From a virus (taxonomy: Duplodnaviria; Heunggongvirae; Uroviricota; Caudoviricetes), in the IMG/VR virus record IMGVR_UViG_2671180473_000015: DNA of 35,845 bases; one strand, given 5' to 3'. A program made the translations under genes and the position numbers. Positions 4,478 to 14,695 of this stretch are shown one piece after another. The notes beneath the pieces are model-generated. The model made no database searches and was not told where the DNA came from. It saw only the letters and a program-made list of their open reading frames with translations. Each line of letters starts with the position of its first letter. Within the stretch, counting starts at the first letter, position 1.

Positions 4478-5152
4478 TTAGGCCTTTATTATGTATCTTC
4501 TTGGTTTTCCTGAGAAAATCACTGTACCAATTATAGAGCAATTACCGTTAATCTTAATGTAAGGCTCAGGCCAGTTTGGGTTTAATGCTTTGAGATAACG
4601 CTGTGTTCCATCTTCTATCAACCGCTTGAAGGTGGTTTCGCCTGTATCGTGCATCAATGCAATAACGTCGTCACCGTGGCAGGCAGGGACTTCAGGATCA
4701 ACAAAAATCATGTCTCCCGGGCGGTACTCATCAATCATTGAATCACCAATCACCCGCAAGATATAAGTCATTTCGCCACAGGGTACAGGGCAGGGATAAG
4801 TTTCTGCTGTGCTCAAATCAACCTCAGAATAGCCAACTTCTTTCCATGCTCCGGCCTGTACCCATGATATGACAGGGACTAACGTTATTTGTTTGTTAGT
4901 GATTGAAACGTCAGGTTTTTTTGTGATGTTCGTTGTCTGGTGTTCTTGATCAAGCCATCCGACAGGCAGGTCGAAACATTTTTCGATGTGCCGTGCCATG
5001 CTGTCACCGATATTTTTAGTTGCACCATCTCCCATAAACCTGCTGGTCTGGGTTGGCTCGCGATCAATCATGGTGGCAAAGGAAGAATTCCCGCCAACAC
5101 CATCTCTCAGTTTTCTGGCGTTAGACCGCCGGATGTCATGGACTGTTTTCAT
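4478..5152 (-). CDS. CI-like prophage repressor (HTH domain plus S24 LexA-like autopeptidase domain)
   Basis: 224-aa ORF. C-terminal domain carries the GDSM Ser motif (LRVIGDSM) and a downstream Lys (TFKRL) typical of S24 self-cleaving repressors. Divergent from the cro-like gene, with operator palindromes between them. Confidence 0.85.
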   Translation of the reverse strand: MKTVHDIRRSNARKLRDGVGGNSSFATMIDREPTQTSRFMGDGATKNIGDSMARHIEKCFDLPVGWLDQEHQTTNITKKPDVSITNKQITLVPVISWVQAGAWKEVGYSEVDLSTAETYPCPVPCGEMTYILRVIGDSMIDEYRPGDMIFVDPEVPACHGDDVIALMHDTGETTFKRLIEDGTQRYLKALNPNWPEPYIKINGNCSIIGTVIFSGKPRRYIIKA

Positions 5153-5474: not shown

Positions 5475-6038
5475 ATGAGGCTAACCGTGGGTAAGCATCA
5501 CTGGAAAGTAGAAAAACAGCCTGAGTGGTACGTGAAAGCTGTCAGAAAAACTATCGCGGCGTTGCCGGGGGGTTACGCTGAAGCTGCTGAGTGGCTGGAT
5601 GTAACAGAGAACGCTTTATTCAACCGCCTTCGTGCAGATGGCGATCAGATTTTCCCGCTGGGATGGGCAATGATTTTACAGCGCGCGGCTGGCACTCACT
5701 ACATTGCGGATGCTGTCGCACAGTCTGCTGGTGGGGTGTTTGTATCGCTTCCTGAAATTGAGGAAGTAGAGAACGCCGATATAAACCAGCGCCTGCTGGA
5801 AGTCATCGAACAGATCGGGAGTTACTCAAAGCAGATTCGTTCGGCAATCGAAGATGGGGTAGTGGAGCCACACGAGCAGACAGCAATTAATGATGAGTTG
5901 TATCTGTCAATTTCGAAGCTCCAGGAGCATGCAGCACTGGTCTACAAAATCTTTTGCGCTCCAGAAAAGAGTGACGCCCGCGAGTGTGCAGCTCCGGGCG
6001 TCGTGGCGTTTTGTGTCTGTGGAGAAACTAACGCATGA
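5475..6038 (+). CDS. early regulatory protein at the cII position (CII/YdaT-like, family uncertain)
   Basis: 187-aa ORF directly downstream of cro. Stop overlaps the next start (ATGA). Family assignment is from position and weak recollection only. Confidence 0.4.
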   Translation: MRLTVGKHHWKVEKQPEWYVKAVRKTIAALPGGYAEAAEWLDVTENALFNRLRADGDQIFPLGWAMILQRAAGTHYIADAVAQSAGGVFVSLPEIEEVENADINQRLLEVIEQIGSYSKQIRSAIEDGVVEPHEQTAINDELYLSISKLQEHAALVYKIFCAPEKSDARECAAPGVVAFCVCGETNA

Positions 6039-6871
6039 ACAGTTTAACGGCAAATAACCGTTTGTCGCAACAGCTGGTGGTCAGCGTCGCTGAACACCTG
6101 TTGTTACGGCATGAATGCAGATTACCAAATCACCTGGCTGTAAGTAACCACAGAGAACTTTACCTGACTGTGGGGGGCGAGTTGTGCAGGAACTTAACCG
6201 CTGGTTTCGTGACGGAAGAGGACTTTATGTTCATGTTATTCGTTGGGAGCCAGAAACACAGCGCGTTATCTATCTTCGCAAAGACTACCCGCATGAGTGC
6301 TTTAGTCCTTTGTGGAAATTCAGGCGTGATTTTGTTGAGTGTGAAGGACCACCAGCACATTGATTCTGCCATTCCGGGACGTTACACTGTTCAGGCACCT
6401 TATAAAGCGGGTGCCGGGATTGGCGTCCTGGAATTGATCAAGGCGATATATGACGCGCCAGCGTCTTTTTTATCGTCCGCATTTGCTCACATCAAAGTTA
6501 TGGTGGGCTGGGCGGGGGCATCGAAAGATGCGCCGGTTTCCTTGATCACCGGTTACGCCAACCCCGTTCAGTTCACCACCAGCGAAATTGGCGTTTCCGG
6601 TGGTGGAAGTATTTCACCGATCAAGGAGGCTGCCATCATGGCTACTGTCCCAGCCCTCACTCGTCTGAATGATGAAGACTTACATAAACTCAGTTATGTA
6701 ACAACTGCACTACGTGCTCTGCGCAAGGTAACTCTTTCGGATCCGCAGGCACATCAGGTTCTGGTAGAAACCCTTCTTAACTTGCAAGCTGAACGTATTC
6801 GTCTGGCGGATAAGGCTAATTTTCATATTCACCGTCTCCTGAATATCAGCGGAGGGCATCGTCATGCTTAA
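6035..6871 (+). CDS. hypothetical protein (gene structure uncertain)
   Basis: 278-codon open frame with SD GGAG upstream of the ATG at 6035, translationally coupled at both ends. No family recognised. An alternative 59-aa ORF in another frame (6184..6363) starts just after a G6 homopolymer, so a frameshift or overlapping genes cannot be excluded. Confidence 0.35.
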   Translation: MNSLTANNRLSQQLVVSVAEHLLLRHECRLPNHLAVSNHRELYLTVGGELCRNLTAGFVTEEDFMFMLFVGSQKHSALSIFAKTTRMSALVLCGNSGVILLSVKDHQHIDSAIPGRYTVQAPYKAGAGIGVLELIKAIYDAPASFLSSAFAHIKVMVGWAGASKDAPVSLITGYANPVQFTTSEIGVSGGGSISPIKEAAIMATVPALTRLNDEDLHKLSYVTTALRALRKVTLSDPQAHQVLVETLLNLQAERIRLADKANFHIHRLLNISGGHRHA

Positions 6872-7100
6872 TCCGTTGATCCTCAATATTTGCCGTTTGC
6901 TTCAGCGTAAAAAAATATCAATTCCTACAGTTGGGCAGTGGTACACCACGCCTGCAGGGCATGTTCTACGTGTTAGCCTGGTTGACCGTGAATGCCAGAA
7001 GGTGATTTGTGAACCGCTGGGCCGTAATTACCGCGTCAGTATGCCGCTTATAGCCTTTCGCTCCGGAAAAAACATGAAGCATCTCGGAGGTGCAGCATGA
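6864..7100 (+). CDS. small hypothetical protein (78 aa)
   Basis: ATG with upstream GGAGGG SD. Start overlaps the upstream stop and its stop overlaps the O-like start (ATGA), i.e. translational coupling within the early-right operon. Confidence 0.4.
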   Translation: MLNPLILNICRLLQRKKISIPTVGQWYTTPAGHVLRVSLVDRECQKVICEPLGRNYRVSMPLIAFRSGKNMKHLGGAA

Positions 7101-7915
7101 GTATGGAGCTGATGGTTAAAGCGATGAAAATTCGAGTGGGTAATCCATTGCGAAAACTGGTTCTGATCAAGCTGGCTGATAATGCCAGCGATCAGGGTGA
7201 GTGCTGGCCCAGCTACCAGCATATTGCTGACCAGTGCGAAATTAGCAAACGTTCTGTGATGAATCATATTGCGGCCCTTTGTGAGTCCGGGCTGGTAAAA
7301 AAAGTCACCCGGAAAGGTGAAAAAGGTAACTCAAGTAATATCTATCTCCTTCATCTGGATGGTGCAGGAGATTCACTAGGGGGTAGTGCAAATAATTCAC
7401 TATCTGGTGCAGCAAATTCACCAGGTAGTGCAGGAGTTGCACCAGGGGGTAGTGCAGGAGATTCACCCAGAACCAGTCACTCTTTTGAACCAGTCAAAGA
7501 ACCAGTCAATGAACCAATAGCTGTTGGTGCATCAGTTGATGAGTCCGTGCGAGTTCGTTCAAACCGACCGGAATACTCTCCGGAGTTTGAGCAGGCATGG
7601 CTGGCATATCCCAAACGTGCTGGTGGCAATTCAAAATCTGCAGCCTTCAAAGCCTGGAAAGCCCGTTTGAATGAGGGAGTAAACCCCGAAACCATGCTGG
7701 AAGGTGTGAAACGCTACGCGGGATGGGTATCTGCGATGGGTAACAGCGGCACACAATTTGTGAAACAGGCTGTCACGTTCTTTGGTCCGGATCGTCATTT
7801 CGAAGAATTCTGGGAAGTTCCTGCGGTATCTGCAGCCAGACGCGAGGACCCGTACTTCAAAGCCAGTTACGACAACGTGGACTACAGCCAGATCCCGGCA
7901 GGATTCAGGGGGTGA
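7097..7915 (+). CDS. replication initiator, lambda O-like (N-terminal winged-HTH replisome organiser)
   Basis: 272-aa ORF. N-terminus (KLVLIKLADNASDQGECWPSYQHIADQCEISKRSVMNHIAAL) is the classic phage replication-initiator HTH. A Gly/Ser-rich linker is encoded by an internal iteron array, as in lambda O. Confidence 0.7.
   Translation: MSMELMVKAMKIRVGNPLRKLVLIKLADNASDQGECWPSYQHIADQCEISKRSVMNHIAALCESGLVKKVTRKGEKGNSSNIYLLHLDGAGDSLGGSANNSLSGAANSPGSAGVAPGGSAGDSPRTSHSFEPVKEPVNEPIAVGASVDESVRVRSNRPEYSPEFEQAWLAYPKRAGGNSKSAAFKAWKARLNEGVNPETMLEGVKRYAGWVSAMGNSGTQFVKQAVTFFGPDRHFEEFWEVPAVSAARREDPYFKASYDNVDYSQIPAGFRG
7361..7508 (+). repeat. iteron array (candidate replication origin) inside the O-like gene
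   Basis: Five direct repeats of about 19 bp (consensus GGTAGTGCAGGAGATTCAC) at roughly 7361, 7382, 7406, 7424 and 7448, followed by three copies of AACCAGTCA at 7471, 7488 and 7500. Confidence 0.55.
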
Positions 7916-8406
7916 TCATGAGTCTTTTGAATGAAGTTCAGAAATTCATTGAAGCCCATCCGGGGTGTACTTCCGGAGACATTGCGGATGCTTTTGCAGG
8001 TTACTCACGGCAGCGCGTTCTGCAGTCAGCAAGCAAGTTACGTCAGAGTGGGCGTGTGGCTCACCGTTATGAAGGAGATACACGCAGACATTTCCCACGC
8101 CTGACTGAGAGAGCGCAGGAGCCGGAACCACAACCAGTTCGTGAAACCAGACCTGTGCGCAATTTCTATGTCGGCACTAACGATCCCCGGGTGATTTTGT
8201 GCCTGACCCGCCAGGCGGAAGAACTGGAGTCCAGGGGCTTATACCGTCGTGCTGCAACGGTGTGGATGGCGGCATTCCGTGAAAGCCACTCCCAGCCAGA
8301 ACGAAACAATTTTCTGGCGCGTCGTGAGCGGTGCTTACGGAAAAGCAGCAAGCGCGCTGCATCGGGTGAAGAGTGGTATCTGTCAGGGAATTACGTGGGG
8401 GCTTAA
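7912..8406 (+). CDS. winged-helix protein with PerC/ANR-like C-terminal region (putative regulator)
   Basis: 164-aa ORF. C-terminal AEELESRGLYRRAATVWMAAF...NFLARRERCL resembles the PerC motif (LEEAGYWRRAAECW...RRKQC) from memory. Occupies the position where lambda has P. Confidence 0.45.
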   Translation: MIMSLLNEVQKFIEAHPGCTSGDIADAFAGYSRQRVLQSASKLRQSGRVAHRYEGDTRRHFPRLTERAQEPEPQPVRETRPVRNFYVGTNDPRVILCLTRQAEELESRGLYRRAATVWMAAFRESHSQPERNNFLARRERCLRKSSKRAASGEEWYLSGNYVGA

Positions 8407-9059
8407 TGAGTAATAAATATTGCCAGGCGCTGGTGGAGCTGCGGAACAAACCAGCCCATGAACTGAAGGAAGTGGGCGATCAGTGGCGCACGCCGGATAA
8501 CATTTTCTGGGGAATTAACACCCTGTTTGGCCCGTTTGTTCTGGATCTGTTCACTGATGGTGATAACGCCAAATGTGCCGCTTATTACACTGCGGAAGAC
8601 AACGCGCTGGCGCATGACTGGTCTGAACGTCTTGCGGAGCTTAAAGGTGCTGCCTTTGGTAATCCCCCGTACAGCCGCGCCAGTCAGCATGAAGGGCAAT
8701 ACATCACCGGCATGCGTTACATCATGAAACATGCCAGTGCCATGCGTGATAAGGGCGGACGCTATGTTTTCCTGATCAAAGCTGCCACCAGCGAAGTGTG
8801 GTGGCCGGAAGATGCAGATCATATTGCTTTTATTCGCGGGCGTATTGGTTTTGAACTGCCTGCCTGGTTTATCCCGAAGGACGAGAAGCAGGTGCCGACA
8901 GGCGCTTTCTTCGCTGGTGCTATTGCTGTTTTCGACAAGACCTGGAAGGGACCGGCAATCAGCTACATCGGGCGCGATGAACTTGAGGCATGTGGTGAGG
9001 CGTTTCTGGCGCAGGTTCGCCAGCAGGCGGAAAAACTGGTCAGGGAGATGGCGGCATGA
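8406..9059 (+). CDS. phage Dam-family DNA N6-adenine methyltransferase
   Basis: 217-aa product from the ATG at 8406. NPPY catalytic motif (AFGNPPYSR) and overall similarity to phage Dam methylases (PF05869-like) as I recall them. No adjacent restriction endonuclease. Confidence 0.8.
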   Translation: MSNKYCQALVELRNKPAHELKEVGDQWRTPDNIFWGINTLFGPFVLDLFTDGDNAKCAAYYTAEDNALAHDWSERLAELKGAAFGNPPYSRASQHEGQYITGMRYIMKHASAMRDKGGRYVFLIKAATSEVWWPEDADHIAFIRGRIGFELPAWFIPKDEKQVPTGAFFAGAIAVFDKTWKGPAISYIGRDELEACGEAFLAQVRQQAEKLVREMAA

Positions 9060-9382
9060 CGACGTTAACTCAATGCCAGCAGCAGGTGCTGGATATGCTG
9101 ATTTCTTACCAGAAAGAACGTGGCTTCCCGCCAACCAATCAGGAGGTGGCAACCATGCTGGGATACCGTTCAGTGAATGCAGCGGTGGAACATCTTCGCG
9201 CACTGGAGAAAAAAGGCGTCATCACGATAAAGCGTGGCATGGCCCGGGGTATCACTCTTCATACCGCGGTGAAGGACGACGACAGCGAGGCGGTCGGGAT
9301 TATCCGCTCACTGCTTGCCGGTGAGGAAAACGCCAGGCTGCGTGCAACCCACTGGTTACATGAGAGAGGCCTGAAAGTATGA
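9056..9382 (+). CDS. LexA N-terminal DNA-binding-domain protein lacking the S24 peptidase domain
   Basis: 108-aa ORF. LTQCQQQVLDMLISYQKERGFPPTNQEVATMLGYRSVNAAVEHLRALEKKGVITI aligns closely with the E. coli LexA N-terminus ([55 protein letters not shown]). The protein ends before any Ser-Lys peptidase domain. Confidence 0.7.
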   Translation: MTTLTQCQQQVLDMLISYQKERGFPPTNQEVATMLGYRSVNAAVEHLRALEKKGVITIKRGMARGITLHTAVKDDDSEAVGIIRSLLAGEENARLRATHWLHERGLKV

Positions 9383-9768
9383 AGCTGATCCTGCCTTTCC
9401 CGCCCAGCGTGAACACGTACTGGCGACACCCCAACAAAGGGGCATTTGCTGGTAAGAGCCTGATAAGCGCGGCGGGGCGAAAATTTCAGAGCGCGGCGTG
9501 CGCAGCAATAGTTGAGCAGTTACGTCGTCTGCCAAAACCAACGTCGGCACCTGCTTCAGTGGAGATCGTGTTGTTTCCTCCGGATAACCGGATCCGCGAT
9601 CTGGACAACTATAACAAGGCGCTGTTTGACGCCCTGACCCACGCGGGGGTGTGGGAAGACGACAGCCAGGTGAAAAGAATGCTGGTGGAGTGGGGACCGG
9701 TTATCCAGAAAGGGAAGGTCGAGATCACTATCAGTAAGTATGAGAAACCGGCGGGTGCAGCCGCCTGA
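9379..9768 (+). CDS. rusA: RusA-family Holliday junction resolvase
   Basis: 129-aa ORF starting MKLILPFPPSVNTYW, the RusA signature, with conserved acidic residues (DLDNYNKALFDAL). Confidence 0.85.
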   Translation: MKLILPFPPSVNTYWRHPNKGAFAGKSLISAAGRKFQSAACAAIVEQLRRLPKPTSAPASVEIVLFPPDNRIRDLDNYNKALFDALTHAGVWEDDSQVKRMLVEWGPVIQKGKVEITISKYEKPAGAAA

Positions 9769-9787
9769 TCAAGAGGAGAAACGAAGT

Positions 9788-10597
9788 ATGAATAATCTGA
9801 TGGTCATTGATGGTATTGAAGTTCGTCGTGATGCTTATGGGCGTTACAGCCTGAACGATCTGCACAGGGCAGCCGGGGGAGAACAAAAAAACCGCCCGAA
9901 ATACTGGCTCTCCAATAAGCAAACCTGTGAATTGATTGAACAACTTTTCACCGAGGGTGGAATTCCGCCTCTGGAACAAAATCAACCAGTTAGCGTCATT
10001 AATGGCGGAAATAACCAGGGGACGTATGTCTGCAAAGAACTGGTGTATGCCTATGCAATGTGGATCAGCCCGTCATTCCATCTGAAGGTGATCCGTACTT
10101 TCGACATGGTAACCAGCGCACCGGAAAAATTATCCGGACAGGCTGCTGACAAGATGCAGGCTGGCGTGATCCTGCTGGACTTTATGCGCCGGGAATTAAA
10201 TCTGTCTAACTCATCAGTGCTTGGAGCCTGTCAGAAGCTTCAGGAGGCTGTTGGCTTACCGAATCTGGCACCGCGCTATGCCATTGATGCTCCTGCTGAC
10301 GCGCCTGATGGCTCAAGTCGCCCCACGCTGTCGCTGAGTGCACTGCTGAAGCAGTATGGTATCCGCCTGACGGCTAATCAGGCATATCACCAGATGGTGA
10401 AGCTGGGGATCGTTGAACAACGCGAACGATACAGCCGTACCGCGATTAACAACATCAAAAAATTCTGGTCGCTGACGGCGAAAGGCTGCATGTTCGGCAA
10501 GAACATCACCAGTCCTGCAAATCCGCGCGAGACGCAGCCGCATTTCTTCGAATCCCGATTCCCTGAGCTGTTAAAGCTGCTCGATACCGTTCATTGA
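9788..10597 (+). CDS. KilA-N domain protein (antirepressor-like)
   Basis: 269-aa product from the ATG at 9788 (SD GAGGAG upstream). N-terminal KilA-N domain (VIDGIEVRRDAYGRYSLNDLHRAAGGEQKNRPKYWLSNKQTCELIEQL...YAMWISPSFHLKVIRTF). Confidence 0.7.
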   Translation: MNNLMVIDGIEVRRDAYGRYSLNDLHRAAGGEQKNRPKYWLSNKQTCELIEQLFTEGGIPPLEQNQPVSVINGGNNQGTYVCKELVYAYAMWISPSFHLKVIRTFDMVTSAPEKLSGQAADKMQAGVILLDFMRRELNLSNSSVLGACQKLQEAVGLPNLAPRYAIDAPADAPDGSSRPTLSLSALLKQYGIRLTANQAYHQMVKLGIVEQRERYSRTAINNIKKFWSLTAKGCMFGKNITSPANPRETQPHFFESRFPELLKLLDTVH

Positions 10598-10598
10598 G

Positions 10599-11594
10599 GT
10601 GACCGTGAGAGCACTACTGACCCCTGAAATTGCCCCGCGTATGGGGATCGTATTGTTCAGGCCAGGTTCAGAGCTGATGCCCCTGTTTATGCAGGGGCGT
10701 GTTCTGCTGGAGCCTGAGCCGGAACGTTATTCATCTTTCGCCAGTGGTGCCGTTCCGGCGGCATCACAACCGCTGGCGGATGATCCTGCCGTTCGGGCCG
10801 TGTTCCGCAATGAGGCAGTGATCCGTCGTGCTGGTGGCGTGGAATGTCTTGAAAGCTGGTTACTTCGTGAAAAAGGCTGCCAGTGGCCTCATTCCGACTG
10901 GCACAGCGAGAACATGACCACAATGCGACACGCTCCGGGCGCAATCCGTCTGTGCTGGCACTGCGATAACCAGCTGCGCGATCAGTTCACGGAACGGCTG
11001 GAATCAATGGCAACGGATAACTGTGCCCGCTGGGTGTTGTCTGTTGTGCGTCGGGATCTCGGTTTTGATGATAGTCACGTTGTGACAATGCCGGAACTGT
11101 GCTGGTGGCTGATTCGTAATGACCTGGCGGATGCCTTACCGGAAAGTGCAGCCCGTAAGGCACTGAGATTACCAAAGCCTGTTGTGCCGTCTGTCACCCG
11201 GGAAAGTGACCTTGTGCCTTCGGTTCCTGCCACCAGCATCATCCAGGATAAGGCAAAAAAGGTGCTGGCGCTGAAAGTGGATCCGGAGTCGCCGGAGTCT
11301 TTTATGTTACGCCCAAAACGCCGCCGCTGGGTTAATGAAAAGTACACGCGCTGGGTTAAGACACAGCCGTGTGCATGTTGTGGAAAGCCTGCTGATGATC
11401 CCCACCACCTGATAGGCCACGGTCAGGGTGGAATGGGTACAAAAGCGCATGACCTCTTTGTGTTGCCTTTGTGCAGAAAGCATCACGACGAGCTGCATGC
11501 GGATACCGTGGCATTTGAAGAGAAGTATGGCTCCCAGCTGGAGCTGATATTTCGTTTTATCGATCGTGCGCTGGCAATTGGCGTATTGGCGTAA
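10599..11594 (+). CDS. DUF968 / YdfU-like protein with C-terminal Cys/His zinc-binding (HNH-like) motif
   Basis: 331-aa ORF with GTG start at 10599 (alternative GTG at 10605). C-terminus CACCGKPADDPHHLIGHGQGG...CRKHHDELH. Family assigned from memory. Confidence 0.55.
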   Translation: MTVRALLTPEIAPRMGIVLFRPGSELMPLFMQGRVLLEPEPERYSSFASGAVPAASQPLADDPAVRAVFRNEAVIRRAGGVECLESWLLREKGCQWPHSDWHSENMTTMRHAPGAIRLCWHCDNQLRDQFTERLESMATDNCARWVLSVVRRDLGFDDSHVVTMPELCWWLIRNDLADALPESAARKALRLPKPVVPSVTRESDLVPSVPATSIIQDKAKKVLALKVDPESPESFMLRPKRRRWVNEKYTRWVKTQPCACCGKPADDPHHLIGHGQGGMGTKAHDLFVLPLCRKHHDELHADTVAFEEKYGSQLELIFRFIDRALAIGVLA

Positions 11595-11607
11595 GTGGAG
11601 AACGAGC

Positions 11608-12360
11608 ATGAACCTTGAAGCCTTACCAAAATATTACTCCCCAAAATCTCCAAAATTGAGCGATGACGCACCGGCGACAGGCTCAGGTGGTTTAACGATT
11701 ACGGATGTGATGGCTGCGCAGGGGATGGTGCAGTCGAAAGCACCGCTTGGGTTTGCCTTATTCCTGGCAAAAGTTGGTGTTCAGGATCCTCAATTTGCGA
11801 TTGAAGGTCTGCTCAATTACGCGATGGCACTGGATAACCCGACATTGAACAAATTGAGTGAAGAAACCCGGTTACAGATCATCCCTTACCTTGTGAATTT
11901 TGCCTTTGCTGATTATTCCAGGTCTGCGGCAAGTAAGGCTCGCTGTGAGCATTGTGCTGGTACTGGATTTCATAATGTATTGCGCGAAGTGGTGAAACAC
12001 TCCAGAAGCGGGGAATCTGTTATCAAGGAAGAGTGGGTGAAGGAACTATGTCAGCATTGCCATGGTAAGGGAGAAGTCAGCACAGCGTGCAGAGGGTGTA
12101 AGGGTAAAGGTATTGTCCTGGATGAAAAAAGAACCCGGCTTCATGGTGTGCCTGTTTATAAGATTTGTGGGCGTTGCAATGGCAACCGGTTTAGCCGTTT
12201 ACCAACCACACTGGCGCGGCATCATGTCCAGAAACTGGTACCGGACCTGACGGATTATCAGTGGTACAAAGGATATGCAGACGTTATTAATAAACTGGTT
12301 ACAAAGTGCTGGCAGGAAGAAGCGTATGCTGAATCGCAATTGAGAAAAGTGACAAGATAG
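11608..12360 (+). CDS. Q: late-gene antitermination protein Q
   Basis: 250-aa product from the ATG at 11608 (SD GGAG 7 nt upstream). Paired CxxC zinc-finger motifs (CEHCAGTGF, CQHCHGKGE, CRGCKGKG, CGRCNGNRF) typical of Q antiterminators. Immediately upstream of a promoter-plus-terminator unit. Confidence 0.8.
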   Translation: MNLEALPKYYSPKSPKLSDDAPATGSGGLTITDVMAAQGMVQSKAPLGFALFLAKVGVQDPQFAIEGLLNYAMALDNPTLNKLSEETRLQIIPYLVNFAFADYSRSAASKARCEHCAGTGFHNVLREVVKHSRSGESVIKEEWVKELCQHCHGKGEVSTACRGCKGKGIVLDEKRTRLHGVPVYKICGRCNGNRFSRLPTTLARHHVQKLVPDLTDYQWYKGYADVINKLVTKCWQEEAYAESQLRKVTR

Positions 12361-12463: not shown

Positions 12464-12490
12464 AAAAACCCGCCGCTGAGCGGGTTTTTT
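12464..12490 (+). terminator. tR'-like rho-independent terminator
   Basis: AAAAACCCGCCGCTGAGCGGGTTTTTTGTGCC: GC stem plus T-run about 45 nt downstream of the candidate late promoter. Confidence 0.7.
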
Positions 12491-12639: not shown

Positions 12640-13065
12640 ATGACTGTAATGAAAAAGGTATTAATAGCAGCGATAGGTTTTTGTTTAGTTGGTTGTGCAG
12701 GTATGAAATTACCTGAGTATTCGCAAGTTAAAGCAAGTCCGTATTATACAGATTGCCGTGCGTTTGCCATGGATGTTTATAAAAATGATGGATACAGCAA
12801 AATTGCGAAAACTACTATCCTTAGCATGGATGATGTGAAAGCTAGATATATTGTGACAGGGTGTGTAGTTGCTATGGGGAAAAACACTGTAGAGGAAATC
12901 AAAGCTGATCTCTCTGCTAAAGGGAGTTCTTTTGGGCTTATCAGTGGAGCTTGTTCTAGTGCGGCATGTCGGGTTGATGTAGAGCAGCAAATGAACGCTT
13001 ATGTACTTGGTAGTTATTATGCTGCAAATAAAAAATTCCCGGATAAAATGAAAGCAGAGTTTTAA
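12640..13065 (+). CDS. lipoprotein encoded by an AT-rich moron between Q and the lysis genes
   Basis: 141-aa ORF. Signal peptide with lipobox (MKKVLIAAIGFCLVGCAG; Cys in LVGC). Several further Cys residues. The flanking region 12490-13140 is markedly AT-rich and bounded by two near-identical terminators. Confidence 0.65.
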   Translation: MTVMKKVLIAAIGFCLVGCAGMKLPEYSQVKASPYYTDCRAFAMDVYKNDGYSKIAKTTILSMDDVKARYIVTGCVVAMGKNTVEEIKADLSAKGSSFGLISGACSSAACRVDVEQQMNAYVLGSYYAANKKFPDKMKAEF

Positions 13066-13142: not shown

Positions 13143-13168
13143 AACCCGCCACTGAGCGGGTTTTTTGT
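13143..13168 (+). terminator. second tR'-like terminator (near-duplicate of 12464-12490)
   Basis: CAACCCGCCACTGAGCGGGTTTTTTGTACCC: same stem and T-run as the terminator at 12464-12490 with two substitutions. Confidence 0.7.
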
Positions 13169-13642: not shown

Positions 13643-14695
13643 ATGAAAAATACTGTAAAAATAAACAGTGTTGATTTAATCAACGCTGATTGCCTGCATT
13701 TTATTCAGTCCCTGCCTGATGATTCCATTGACCTGATTGTTACCGATCCGCCTTACTTCAAGGTGAAACCCAACGGTTGGGACAATCAGTGGAAAGGGGA
13801 CGAAGATTACCTTAAGTGGCTGGACCACTGTCTGGCCCAGTTCTGGCGGGTGTTGAAACCTGCCGGAAGCCTTTACCTGTTCTGTGGGCATCGCCTGGCA
13901 TCTGATATTGAGATCATGATGCGTGAACGTTTCAACGTGCTTAACCATATCATCTGGGCGAAGCCGTCCGGACGTTGGAATGGGTGTAATAAAGAAAGTC
14001 TGCGCGCATATTTTCCTGCCACAGAGCGCGTTCTGTTTGCTGAACATTACCAGGGGCCATATCGCGGCAAAAGTGACGGCTATGCGGCAAAAGAAAGGGA
14101 ACTCAAACAGCACATAATGGCACCGCTGATATCGTATTTCAGGGATGCTCGTGCCGAACTGGGTATAACGGCAAAACAAATTGCCGAAGCCACAGGTAAG
14201 AAAAATATGGTTTCCCACTGGTTTGGTGCCAGTCAGTGGCAGTTGCCGAATGAGGCTGACTATCGGAAGTTACAGGCACTGTTTTCCCGTATAGCGGCAG
14301 AGAAGTTTCAGGAACAACAACTGGAACAACCACACCACCAGCTGGTGGCATCTTATGATTCACTGAATCGTAAATATTCTGAATTGCTGGATGAGTTTAA
14401 ATCTCTCCGGCGCTATTTCTCCGTATCAGTCTCCGTGCCTTATACCGATGTCTGGATGCATAAACCCGTTCAGTTCTACCCGGGGAAACATCCGTGTGAG
14501 AAACCGGCGGATATGCTCAGGCAAATAATCAATGCCAGTAGTCGACCAGGTGATCTGGTTGCTGATTTTTTTATGGGATCCGGTTCCACAATAAAAGCAG
14601 CAATGGCGCTGGGGCGTCGGGCCTTAGGTGTTGAGCTTGAGTCAGAGCGGTTTAATCAGACAGTGAAAGAGATAAACGAGCTGGTGGGGAAATAA
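13643..14695 (+). CDS. DNA methyltransferase, N4/N6 beta-class (DPPY motif before FxGxG motif)
   Basis: 350-aa ORF. Catalytic motif IVTDPPYF near the N-terminus and SAM-binding DFFMGSGST near the C-terminus (PF01555-type order). No cognate endonuclease in the window. Confidence 0.85.

Follow-up and report, generated by a model that had tools for sequence, protein, structure and literature searches.

A KilA-N domain gene in the early-right region of an Escherichia coli lambdoid prophage is preceded by a small RNA hairpin whose stem covaries around an invariant loop, and many sister alleles of this gene have a promoter-like sequence with an SOS-box-type palindrome ahead of that hairpin; both the covarying hairpin and the SOS-box promoter are new details. 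The stretch of DNA that was analysed (the window) is the 35,845-nucleotide IMG/VR virus record IMGVR_UViG_2671180473_000015, which is part of an E. coli lambdoid prophage, and the gene lies at 9788..10597 on its plus strand. The reading that we favour, and to which we give about an even chance of being correct, is that the product is a non-structural accessory protein, a nucleic-acid-binding regulator belonging to the 'Bro network' that acts after derepression of the prophage, its expression being governed by the conserved 5' hairpin.

The open frame on the plus strand spans 9740-10597, and the ATG at 9788 gives a product of 269 aa whose best family match is phrog_129, 'transcriptional regulator' (E=1.9e-128, whole protein). 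This start is supported by a strong Shine-Dalgarno sequence read from the sequence at 9771..9778 on the plus strand (AAGAGGAG), by RefSeq, which uses the same ATG for identical copies, and by Met1, which is invariant across the homologue alignments. The product is 100% identical to the RefSeq 'KilA-N domain-containing protein' WP_001061380.1, and genes annotated under that name in many E. coli chromosomes are 100% identical in DNA. Since full-length homologues at 37-100% identity occur throughout Enterobacterales and beyond, the open reading frame (ORF) is a genuine coding gene, not one that arose by chance; it is already annotated and very widespread in prophages. A homologue with at least 80% DNA identity is present in 2293 of 5426 complete E. 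coli genomes (roughly 40%), and single genomes hold up to 4 copies. SfV orf44 is 96.9% identical in DNA and the copies in Stx2c phages are 99.8-99.9% identical. SfV Orf44 and WP_001061380.1, with the copies in SfII, mEp460, cdtI and Stx2c/Stx2a phages, are the same gene as the window copy and share with the window the block of Dam, LexA-like, RusA, KilA-N and DUF968 genes with no difference of substance. Labels on copies of this group are 'unknown', 'transcriptional regulator' or 'KilA-N domain protein'. A search of the literature for a functional study of the protein family found none, and according to Owen et al. no bacterial KilA-N protein had been functionally characterised as of 2021.

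The initial annotation had identified a KilA-N gene downstream of a LexA-like and a RusA gene, and on both points it was right: residues 7-109 match the Pfam KilA-N family PF04383 (E=4.6e-27), and the two genes lie immediately upstream at 9056..9382 and 9379..9768, all on the plus strand. The KilA-N gene sits in the nin-like early-right region, 4.6 kb from cI and upstream of Q, within a series of genes from 7097 to 12360 that overlap or abut one another. The rusA stop is 19 nt before the KilA-N start, and the start of the DUF968 gene at 10599 abuts the KilA-N stop. Consensus scans ahead of the window copy found no promoter-like site and no CTGT-N8-ACAG LexA box. Because of this tight operon structure, the 19-nt gap and the outcome of these scans, the gene would be expressed only after removal of CI, by transcription reading from pR, and is thus predicted to be a delayed-early gene. 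The CI-type repressor itself (4478..5152, minus strand; Pfam Peptidase_S24, E=1.5e-26) is the primary induction switch and has the hallmarks of a self-cleaving repressor, namely the QAG/AW site, the GDSM serine and the FKRL lysine. The same placement relative to an S24 repressor and to Q was observed in Proteus, Dickeya and many other genera. A protein made only after CI has gone could not trigger induction of its own prophage, so that the second, cleavage-independent induction route once proposed for this gene finds no backing here, in a copy that follows rusA by 19 nt with neither promoter nor LexA box and under a self-cleaving S24 repressor.

The RNA hairpin GGCGG-GUGCAG-CCGCC occupies 9750..9765 on the plus strand, overlapping the last rusA codons and ending 5 nt before the Shine-Dalgarno sequence. 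The minimum free energy structure of 9750-9765 is a 5-bp stem with a hexaloop, and the UGCAG of the loop is invariant across the family. Of 145 related loci, 114 have the motif K-TGCAG no more than 100 nt ahead of the start codon, compared with 8.3% of background 100-nt windows, and the motif was flanked by at least 4 complementary bases in 19 of 22 distinct lineage variants, compared with 9.2% of other occurrences of the motif. The stems themselves differ by lineage (GGCGG/CCGCC, CGGGA/UCCCG, UUCAU/AUGAG, GUCGG/CCGAC and CUAUGUCAG/CUGACAUAG). In an ungapped alignment of 17 sequences the share of paired cells is 92.9%, compared with 58.4% in shuffles (0/500), with compensatory changes in all 5 stem pairs; slid controls gave 33-53%. 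G.U pairs in the stem work on the sense strand only, which points to an RNA structure. The stability of the window hairpin is ordinary for its composition (z=-0.47), and the case for it therefore rests on covariation and not on folding energy. No Rfam family matched the hairpin or the leader described below. From its position and conservation we infer that the hairpin would serve as a post-transcriptional control element of the KilA-N cistron.

Two further ideas about the hairpin were rejected. A kissing interaction of the loop with the complementary CUGCAC at the Leu25-His26 codons is contradicted by the free variation of those codons among lineages that have the hairpin. Nor is a regulon of hairpins of this kind within the window supported: at least 4 flanking pairs accompany 8 of 61 K-TGCAG sites, close to the background rate.

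Instead of the 19-nt gap, many relatives at 54-72% identity have a leader of 100-125 nt. It is composed of a 16-bp palindrome of the LexA-box type, then a conserved promoter-like pair (TTGAAA or TTGATA, N17, then TAAGGT or TAATGT) and then the hairpin. SfIV has a perfect palindrome 115 nt upstream of the gene (TACTGTATTTATGAACAGTA), as does a Citrobacter copy at 109 nt (CTGTTCAAACATACAG); other leaders have forms such as CTGG...CCAG or GTGG...ACAG, which we take to resemble known weaker SOS boxes. The SfIV-type leader with its 5' allele was detected in 187 of the 5426 E. coli genomes, and leaders were also detected in several other genera. The family is thus probably often an autonomous, SOS-controlled unit, as judged from these leaders, and the window copy, which keeps the hairpin alone, appears to have lost the operator and promoter. 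The leader on sister alleles is the strongest point for an SOS-linked role of the protein, whether as an antirepressor or as a modulator of the SOS response. Among the related loci, leaders lie at 4720-4881 in SfIV (L003) and upstream of about position 7001 in L094, L095, L097, L098, L100, L103, L106, L109, L122, L128, L129 and L132, and in several of them the GTGCA(A) motif occurs a second time, 20-30 nt upstream of the hairpin loop.

Other SOS-box-like sequences were noted outside the leaders. In the window a near-consensus box (TACTGTAAAAATAAACAGT) lies at 13651-13669 on the plus strand, downstream of Q, over codons 3-9 of an N6_N4 DNA methylase gene that starts at 13643, and in many related loci a TACTGT-N8-ACAGT match lies about as far downstream of their KilA-N gene. 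The window also contains a second, perfect CTGT-N8-ACAG at 6138-6153, inside the Ash-family gene. A perfect palindromic site (TACTGTTTTTACATACAGTA) was found at 1814-1833 of related locus L016 and at the equivalent spot in about 20 other related loci. It falls in the linker-region coding sequence of an alternative CI gene of the HTH_3/S24 type, in prophages with the same KilA-N allele, and may be either an internal LexA site or a coincidence of the coding sequence.

The predicted protein consists of two domains joined by helices and a probably disordered motif. The N-terminal KilA-N domain (residues 7-109; 9806..10114, plus strand) matches PF04383 with 94.4 bits against a cut-off of 23.8, over profile positions 5-105 of 107. 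An AlphaFold2 model built from 45 homologues at 37-91% identity (mean predicted local distance difference test score, pLDDT, 81.8) comprises the KilA-N domain at residues 1-109, two helices at 114-155, a low-confidence region at about 156-179 and a C-terminal domain at 180-269. In this model the KilA-N domain has the APSES-like alpha/beta fold of DNA-binding domains. Fungal APSES domains (Mbp1, Swi4, Bqt4), which belong to eukaryotic transcription factors and are just 13-16% identical to the window protein, inform the fold and the likely DNA binding of the KilA-N domain and not its biological role. The two long helices (10127..10252, plus strand; secondary structure from the model) begin the part of the C-terminal half that is shared with other proteins; they are kept where the N-terminal domain is a different one and are a possible oligomerisation region. 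They are followed by the motif LxPxYAIDAP...DGSSRPT (residues 160-180; 10265..10327, plus strand), which is the most conserved of the C-terminal half despite low model confidence (pLDDT about 61) and probable disorder. P162, Y164, A165, D167, A168, P169, G175, S176, S177 and T180 are invariant or near-invariant in it, and residues 160-180 are possibly a short linear docking motif. The C-terminal domain (10325..10594, plus strand) is modelled with a winged-helix-like beta-alpha-alpha-beta-hairpin core, which may be of the MerR/excisionase-like winged-helix kind. Both domains are predicted to have nucleic-acid-binding folds. The C-terminal 160 residues had no match in Pfam, NCBIfam or PDB sequence searches, the protein as a whole matched no NCBIfam family and no PDB sequence, and Foldseek against the PDB returned nothing at E<=0.001. 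Searches of Pfam at E<=10 with eight diverse C-terminal modules gave scattered sub-threshold matches of the winged-helix type only, with no ANT/KilAC domain.

In a search of 1.84 billion representative proteins, partial relatives of the protein were of two kinds. The C-terminal ~150 residues alone were matched (42-54% identity) behind Phage_pRha, P22_AR_N, Bro-N or unassigned N-termini, and other proteins share just the KilA-N domain, followed by ANT/KilAC or other C-termini. The shared C-terminal module runs in the alignment from about residue 125 to the end of the protein, and phages of Pseudomonas, Paenibacillus and Ruminococcus share its last ~85 residues. The SfIV allele combines a divergent KilA-N domain with an essentially identical C-terminus and therefore indicates recombination at the domain boundary. 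With an N-terminal domain of the network and a C-terminal module that recurs behind other network domains, the window protein belongs by its sequence to the 'Bro network' of domain-swapping phage regulators (PMC10111431; Iyer et al. 2002).

Some gene arrangements connected with this domain swapping were noted. The Ash-family gene (6035-6871, plus strand, 278 aa) is a second Bro-network gene of the early operon. Related prophages have in the same slot a 383-aa protein, annotated as Rha family in L001, and the L016 protein in that slot matches the window protein at its N-terminus. One database protein, P0126, joins Ash to KilA-N as a chimera, in keeping with deletion or recombination between the two genes. 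The metagenome-derived proteins P0012, P0015 and P0019-P0023 (401-405 aa) are RusA-KilA-N fusions (PF05866 + PF04383), for which frameshifts or read-through in the region of hairpin and stop, 9750-9768, are the probable source, with sequencing error a possibility.

Taken as a regulator of this kind, the protein would be made by read-through from pR once the self-cleaving CI has been inactivated, downstream of the induction decision. Binding of nucleic acid by the KilA-N domain would provide phage-specific targeting, and the constant C-terminal module, with its helices, disordered motif and winged-helix-like domain, may act as the common effector or as the part that binds a partner. As a net effect, the protein would tune gene expression or DNA transactions in SOS or lytic growth, and the 5' hairpin would most likely control translation or stability of the KilA-N cistron. 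Sister alleles with the SOS-box promoter would be autonomous SOS-induced units, the window copy having lost this leader and kept the hairpin. The suggested net effect is drawn by analogy to AriS of the Listeria phage phi10403S, a Bro-network protein (AntA/AntB + ANT/KilAC) annotated as an antirepressor; experiments demonstrated that its variable N-terminal domain regulates its own phage and its constant C-terminal domain inhibits the host SOS response (PMC9043618). Like the window protein, AriS is a Bro-network protein of two domains in which a variable N-terminal domain (AntA/B, Bro-N, Rha) stands on a constant C-terminal domain, and it acts in SOS and lytic induction. Unlike AriS, with which it has no sequence homology, the window protein has a KilA-N domain at its N-terminus and a C-terminal module with no Pfam family. 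Some points weigh against a post-derepression regulator as we describe it. We infer DNA binding by the KilA-N family from its fold only; the analogy to AriS is architectural and not based on homology, since the C-terminal module is not detectably ANT/KilAC (hhalign of the ANT/KilAC domain against the C-terminal domain profile gave a probability of 8.7% over 27 residues); and a weak internal or upstream promoter may exist that is compatible with the result of the consensus scans.

The neighbours of the gene were counted in a one-genome-per-species sample from the scan of genome contigs, binned by identity to the window protein; the IMG/VR scan gave close relatives alone (81-100% identity), so that distant co-occurrence was taken from the genome contigs. 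At an identity of at least 70% a LexA-like gene was found upstream in 6/6 loci, RusA upstream in 6/6 and DUF968 directly downstream in 5/6. The corresponding counts were 4/10, 6/10 and 6/9 at 60-70% identity, 0/28, 12/28 and 24/31 at 50-60%, and 0/5, 0/5 and 1/5 below 50%. Prophages such as ST64B and those of Proteus and Dickeya have the KilA-N gene with no LexA-like gene. Among phage records, which are close relatives, 50 of 54 hold most of the stretch from the LexA-like to the KilA-N gene. The block of Dam, LexA-like, RusA and KilA-N genes is simply co-inherited among close phage relatives; being neighbours in a nin region that is mosaic does not argue for a regulatory pair, and the coupled LexA-like/KilA-N pair that had been suggested from position is not supported, with an adjacency limited to close relatives (0/28 at 50-60% identity). 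If the KilA-N gene has a conserved partner at all, it is DUF968, which of all neighbours is retained most consistently and whose start codon often overlaps the KilA-N stop codon.

Antirepressor activity, which the initial annotation had proposed for the gene, is unlikely. The protein would then bind CI-type repressors non-covalently and inactivate them and, since this copy is expressed after derepression only, would reinforce the commitment to lysis or act by cross-inducing co-resident prophages in trans, and for alleles with the SOS-box leader this would be a true second induction route. The SOS-box-like operator and promoter on many sister alleles, of the SfIV type in 187 genomes, recall LexA-controlled antirepressors, and with up to 4 copies per E. 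coli genome trans effects are conceivable. P22 Ant (P22_AR_N + P22_AR_C), the prototype antirepressor, is part of the same domain-swapping network as the window protein, whose C-terminal module also occurs behind a P22_AR_N domain, in the phage protein P0172. No significant alignment between P22 Ant and the window protein was obtained with BLASTP or hhalign, nor did P22 Ant or P22 Rha match the protein or the profile of the C-terminal module. The PHROG anti-repressor families do match, but weakly (4e-8 and 9e-4) and in the KilA-N domain only, against 1.9e-128 for phrog_129. This comparison covered P22 Ant and the PHROG families, with 186 Tum, Gifsy and P1 Ant left out of it. No homologue bears the name antirepressor among the annotation sources. 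P22 Ant is expressed from the separate immI operon under Arc, Mnt and sar RNA, whereas the window gene is inside the pR operon and has no promoter of its own from which it could be expressed independently of the repressor. An S24 repressor is encoded upstream of the KilA-N gene in most relatives, and the associated prophages that were examined, having self-cleaving repressors of this type, need no antirepressor. S24 repressors of at least three different types accompany alleles that are 99-100% identical to that of the window: the window type, one that is 42% identical to it, and an HTH_3/S24 type. This speaks against a specific pairing with one CI, though not against a promiscuous one. The nucleic-acid-binding folds predicted for both domains also speak against a repressor-binding protein, and AriS illustrates that a Bro-network protein may bear the label 'antirepressor' wrongly; a KilA-N domain does not make a protein an antirepressor. 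For this copy, with no similarity to P22 Ant and weak PHROG matches confined to the KilA-N domain, the antirepressor assignment was not borne out. Of the initial annotation as a whole, the identity and position of the gene stand, and the antirepressor function, the second induction route and the pairing with the LexA-like gene are not supported for the window copy; we treat it as partly supported because an SOS-type leader does occur on sister alleles.

A wider proposal combines several of these elements, and we consider it quite unlikely. The SOS-box operator, promoter, UGCAG hairpin and KilA-N gene would form a mobile cassette whose SOS-timed product influences co-resident prophages in trans, as a promiscuous antirepressor or else as an SOS modulator resembling AriS. 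The hairpin would be an undescribed post-transcriptional operator, possibly for autoregulation by the KilA-N protein through RNA binding, and the cassette in the window would have become part of the pR operon when its promoter and operator were lost.

Modulation of the host SOS response as by AriS, in which the C-terminal module would target RecA or LexA function once the phage is induced and the LexA-like neighbour would contribute, is in our judgement decidedly unlikely. The parallel in architecture, the SOS wiring of sister alleles and the presence, two genes upstream, of a gene for a LexA DNA-binding domain only, with a conserved recognition helix, are in agreement with it. The C-terminal module is, however, not ANT/KilAC by Pfam, hhalign gave a probability of just 8.7%, and the LexA-like gene shows no co-occurrence with the KilA-N gene beyond close relatives. 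The LexA-like protein (9056..9382, plus strand, 108 aa; Pfam LexA_DNA_bind, E=2.1e-19) has no S24 peptidase domain in Pfam. Compared with E. coli LexA, it is 43% identical to residues 1-86, its recognition helix RSVNAAVEHLRAL matches RSPNAAEEHLKAL of LexA, and it has AGE where the LexA cleavage site falls. By these features it could be a non-cleavable LexA mimic on SOS boxes during lytic growth.

We consider it very unlikely that the protein is an accessory factor of DNA metabolism working with the DUF968 nuclease and RusA, for example by targeting or regulating the nuclease in phage recombination or replication. The gene at 10599..11594 on the plus strand (Pfam DUF968, E=3.5e-81, and HNHc_6) encodes a member of a family in which, by the published description, an HNH nuclease motif is fused to an Orf/NinB-like domain; lambda orf is located in the ninR region of DNA-metabolism genes (Curtis et al., PMC4118853). 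DUF968 abuts the KilA-N gene in the 24/31 loci at 50-60% identity, far more often than other neighbours are conserved, and the region is equivalent to lambda ninR with its recombination genes. A conserved gene order in the nin region need not imply physical interaction, though; relatives in Dickeya, Symbiopectobacterium and Arsenophonus have no adjacent DUF968, and the same C-terminal module occurs in phages with other contexts.

A role in defence or host killing, either abortive infection or superinfection exclusion like BstA or toxicity like P1 KilA, is highly improbable. BstA, an abortive-infection factor (Owen et al.) of Salmonella, Klebsiella and E. coli prophages, has a KilA-N-like N-terminal domain and a second domain as the window protein does, KilA-N proteins have been linked to defence islands, and P1 KilA is lethal on expression (as quoted in Owen et al.). 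PADLOC, in which the presence of a BstA model was unconfirmed, gave only a weak match to the candidate PDC-S22 (E=1.2e-6, 36 residues) and no match to another model. BstA is expressed in the lysogen and has its own anti-BstA DNA element, whereas the window gene is in a repressed early operon, 4.6 kb from cI and not beside the repressor with a lysogen-active promoter. P1 KilA (KilA-N + ANT/KilAC) shares with the window protein an N-terminal KilA-N domain and differs in the C-terminal part, where its ANT/KilAC domain (PF03374) has no counterpart in the window protein: none of the eight diverse C-terminal modules gave a Pfam match to it even at E<=10.

The remaining genes of the early region lie on the plus strand and comprise a Cro/YdaS-like gene (not delimited), CII (CP76; 5475-6038), the Ash-family gene, a replication protein (7097-7915), a PerC-like protein (7912-8406), Dam methylase (ending at 9059), the LexA-like gene, RusA (Holliday-junction resolvase; Pfam RusA, E=2.4e-15), KilA-N, DUF968 and the Q antiterminator (ending at 12360). 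The replication and nin operon includes the gene of the PerC-like protein, which has 164 aa and is similar to YfdN; in pathogenic E. coli, homologues of PerC regulate virulence genes. Between Q and the late region, at 12640-13065 on the plus strand, is an ORF of 141 aa with low GC content (about 41%) and a lipoprotein-like signal (MKKVLIAAIGFCLVGC). Terminator-like hairpins on either side of it, at about 12468-12490 and at 13143-13162, give it the look of a moron.

The KilA-N gene is in itself an ordinary one, an annotated accessory gene of E. coli, Shigella, Salmonella and Stx phages. It serves chiefly as a warning against equating KilA-N with antirepressor, or neighbouring genes with a regulatory pair. 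The hairpin and the SOS-box promoter of its sister alleles are by-products that make an SOS-responsive role in prophage induction or cross-talk directly testable and that could merit a small follow-up, given how widespread the gene is and that it occurs in Stx2c phages. If the mobile cassette described above were real, the factor could influence the induction of Shiga-toxin phages, because the same allele sits in Stx2c phages.

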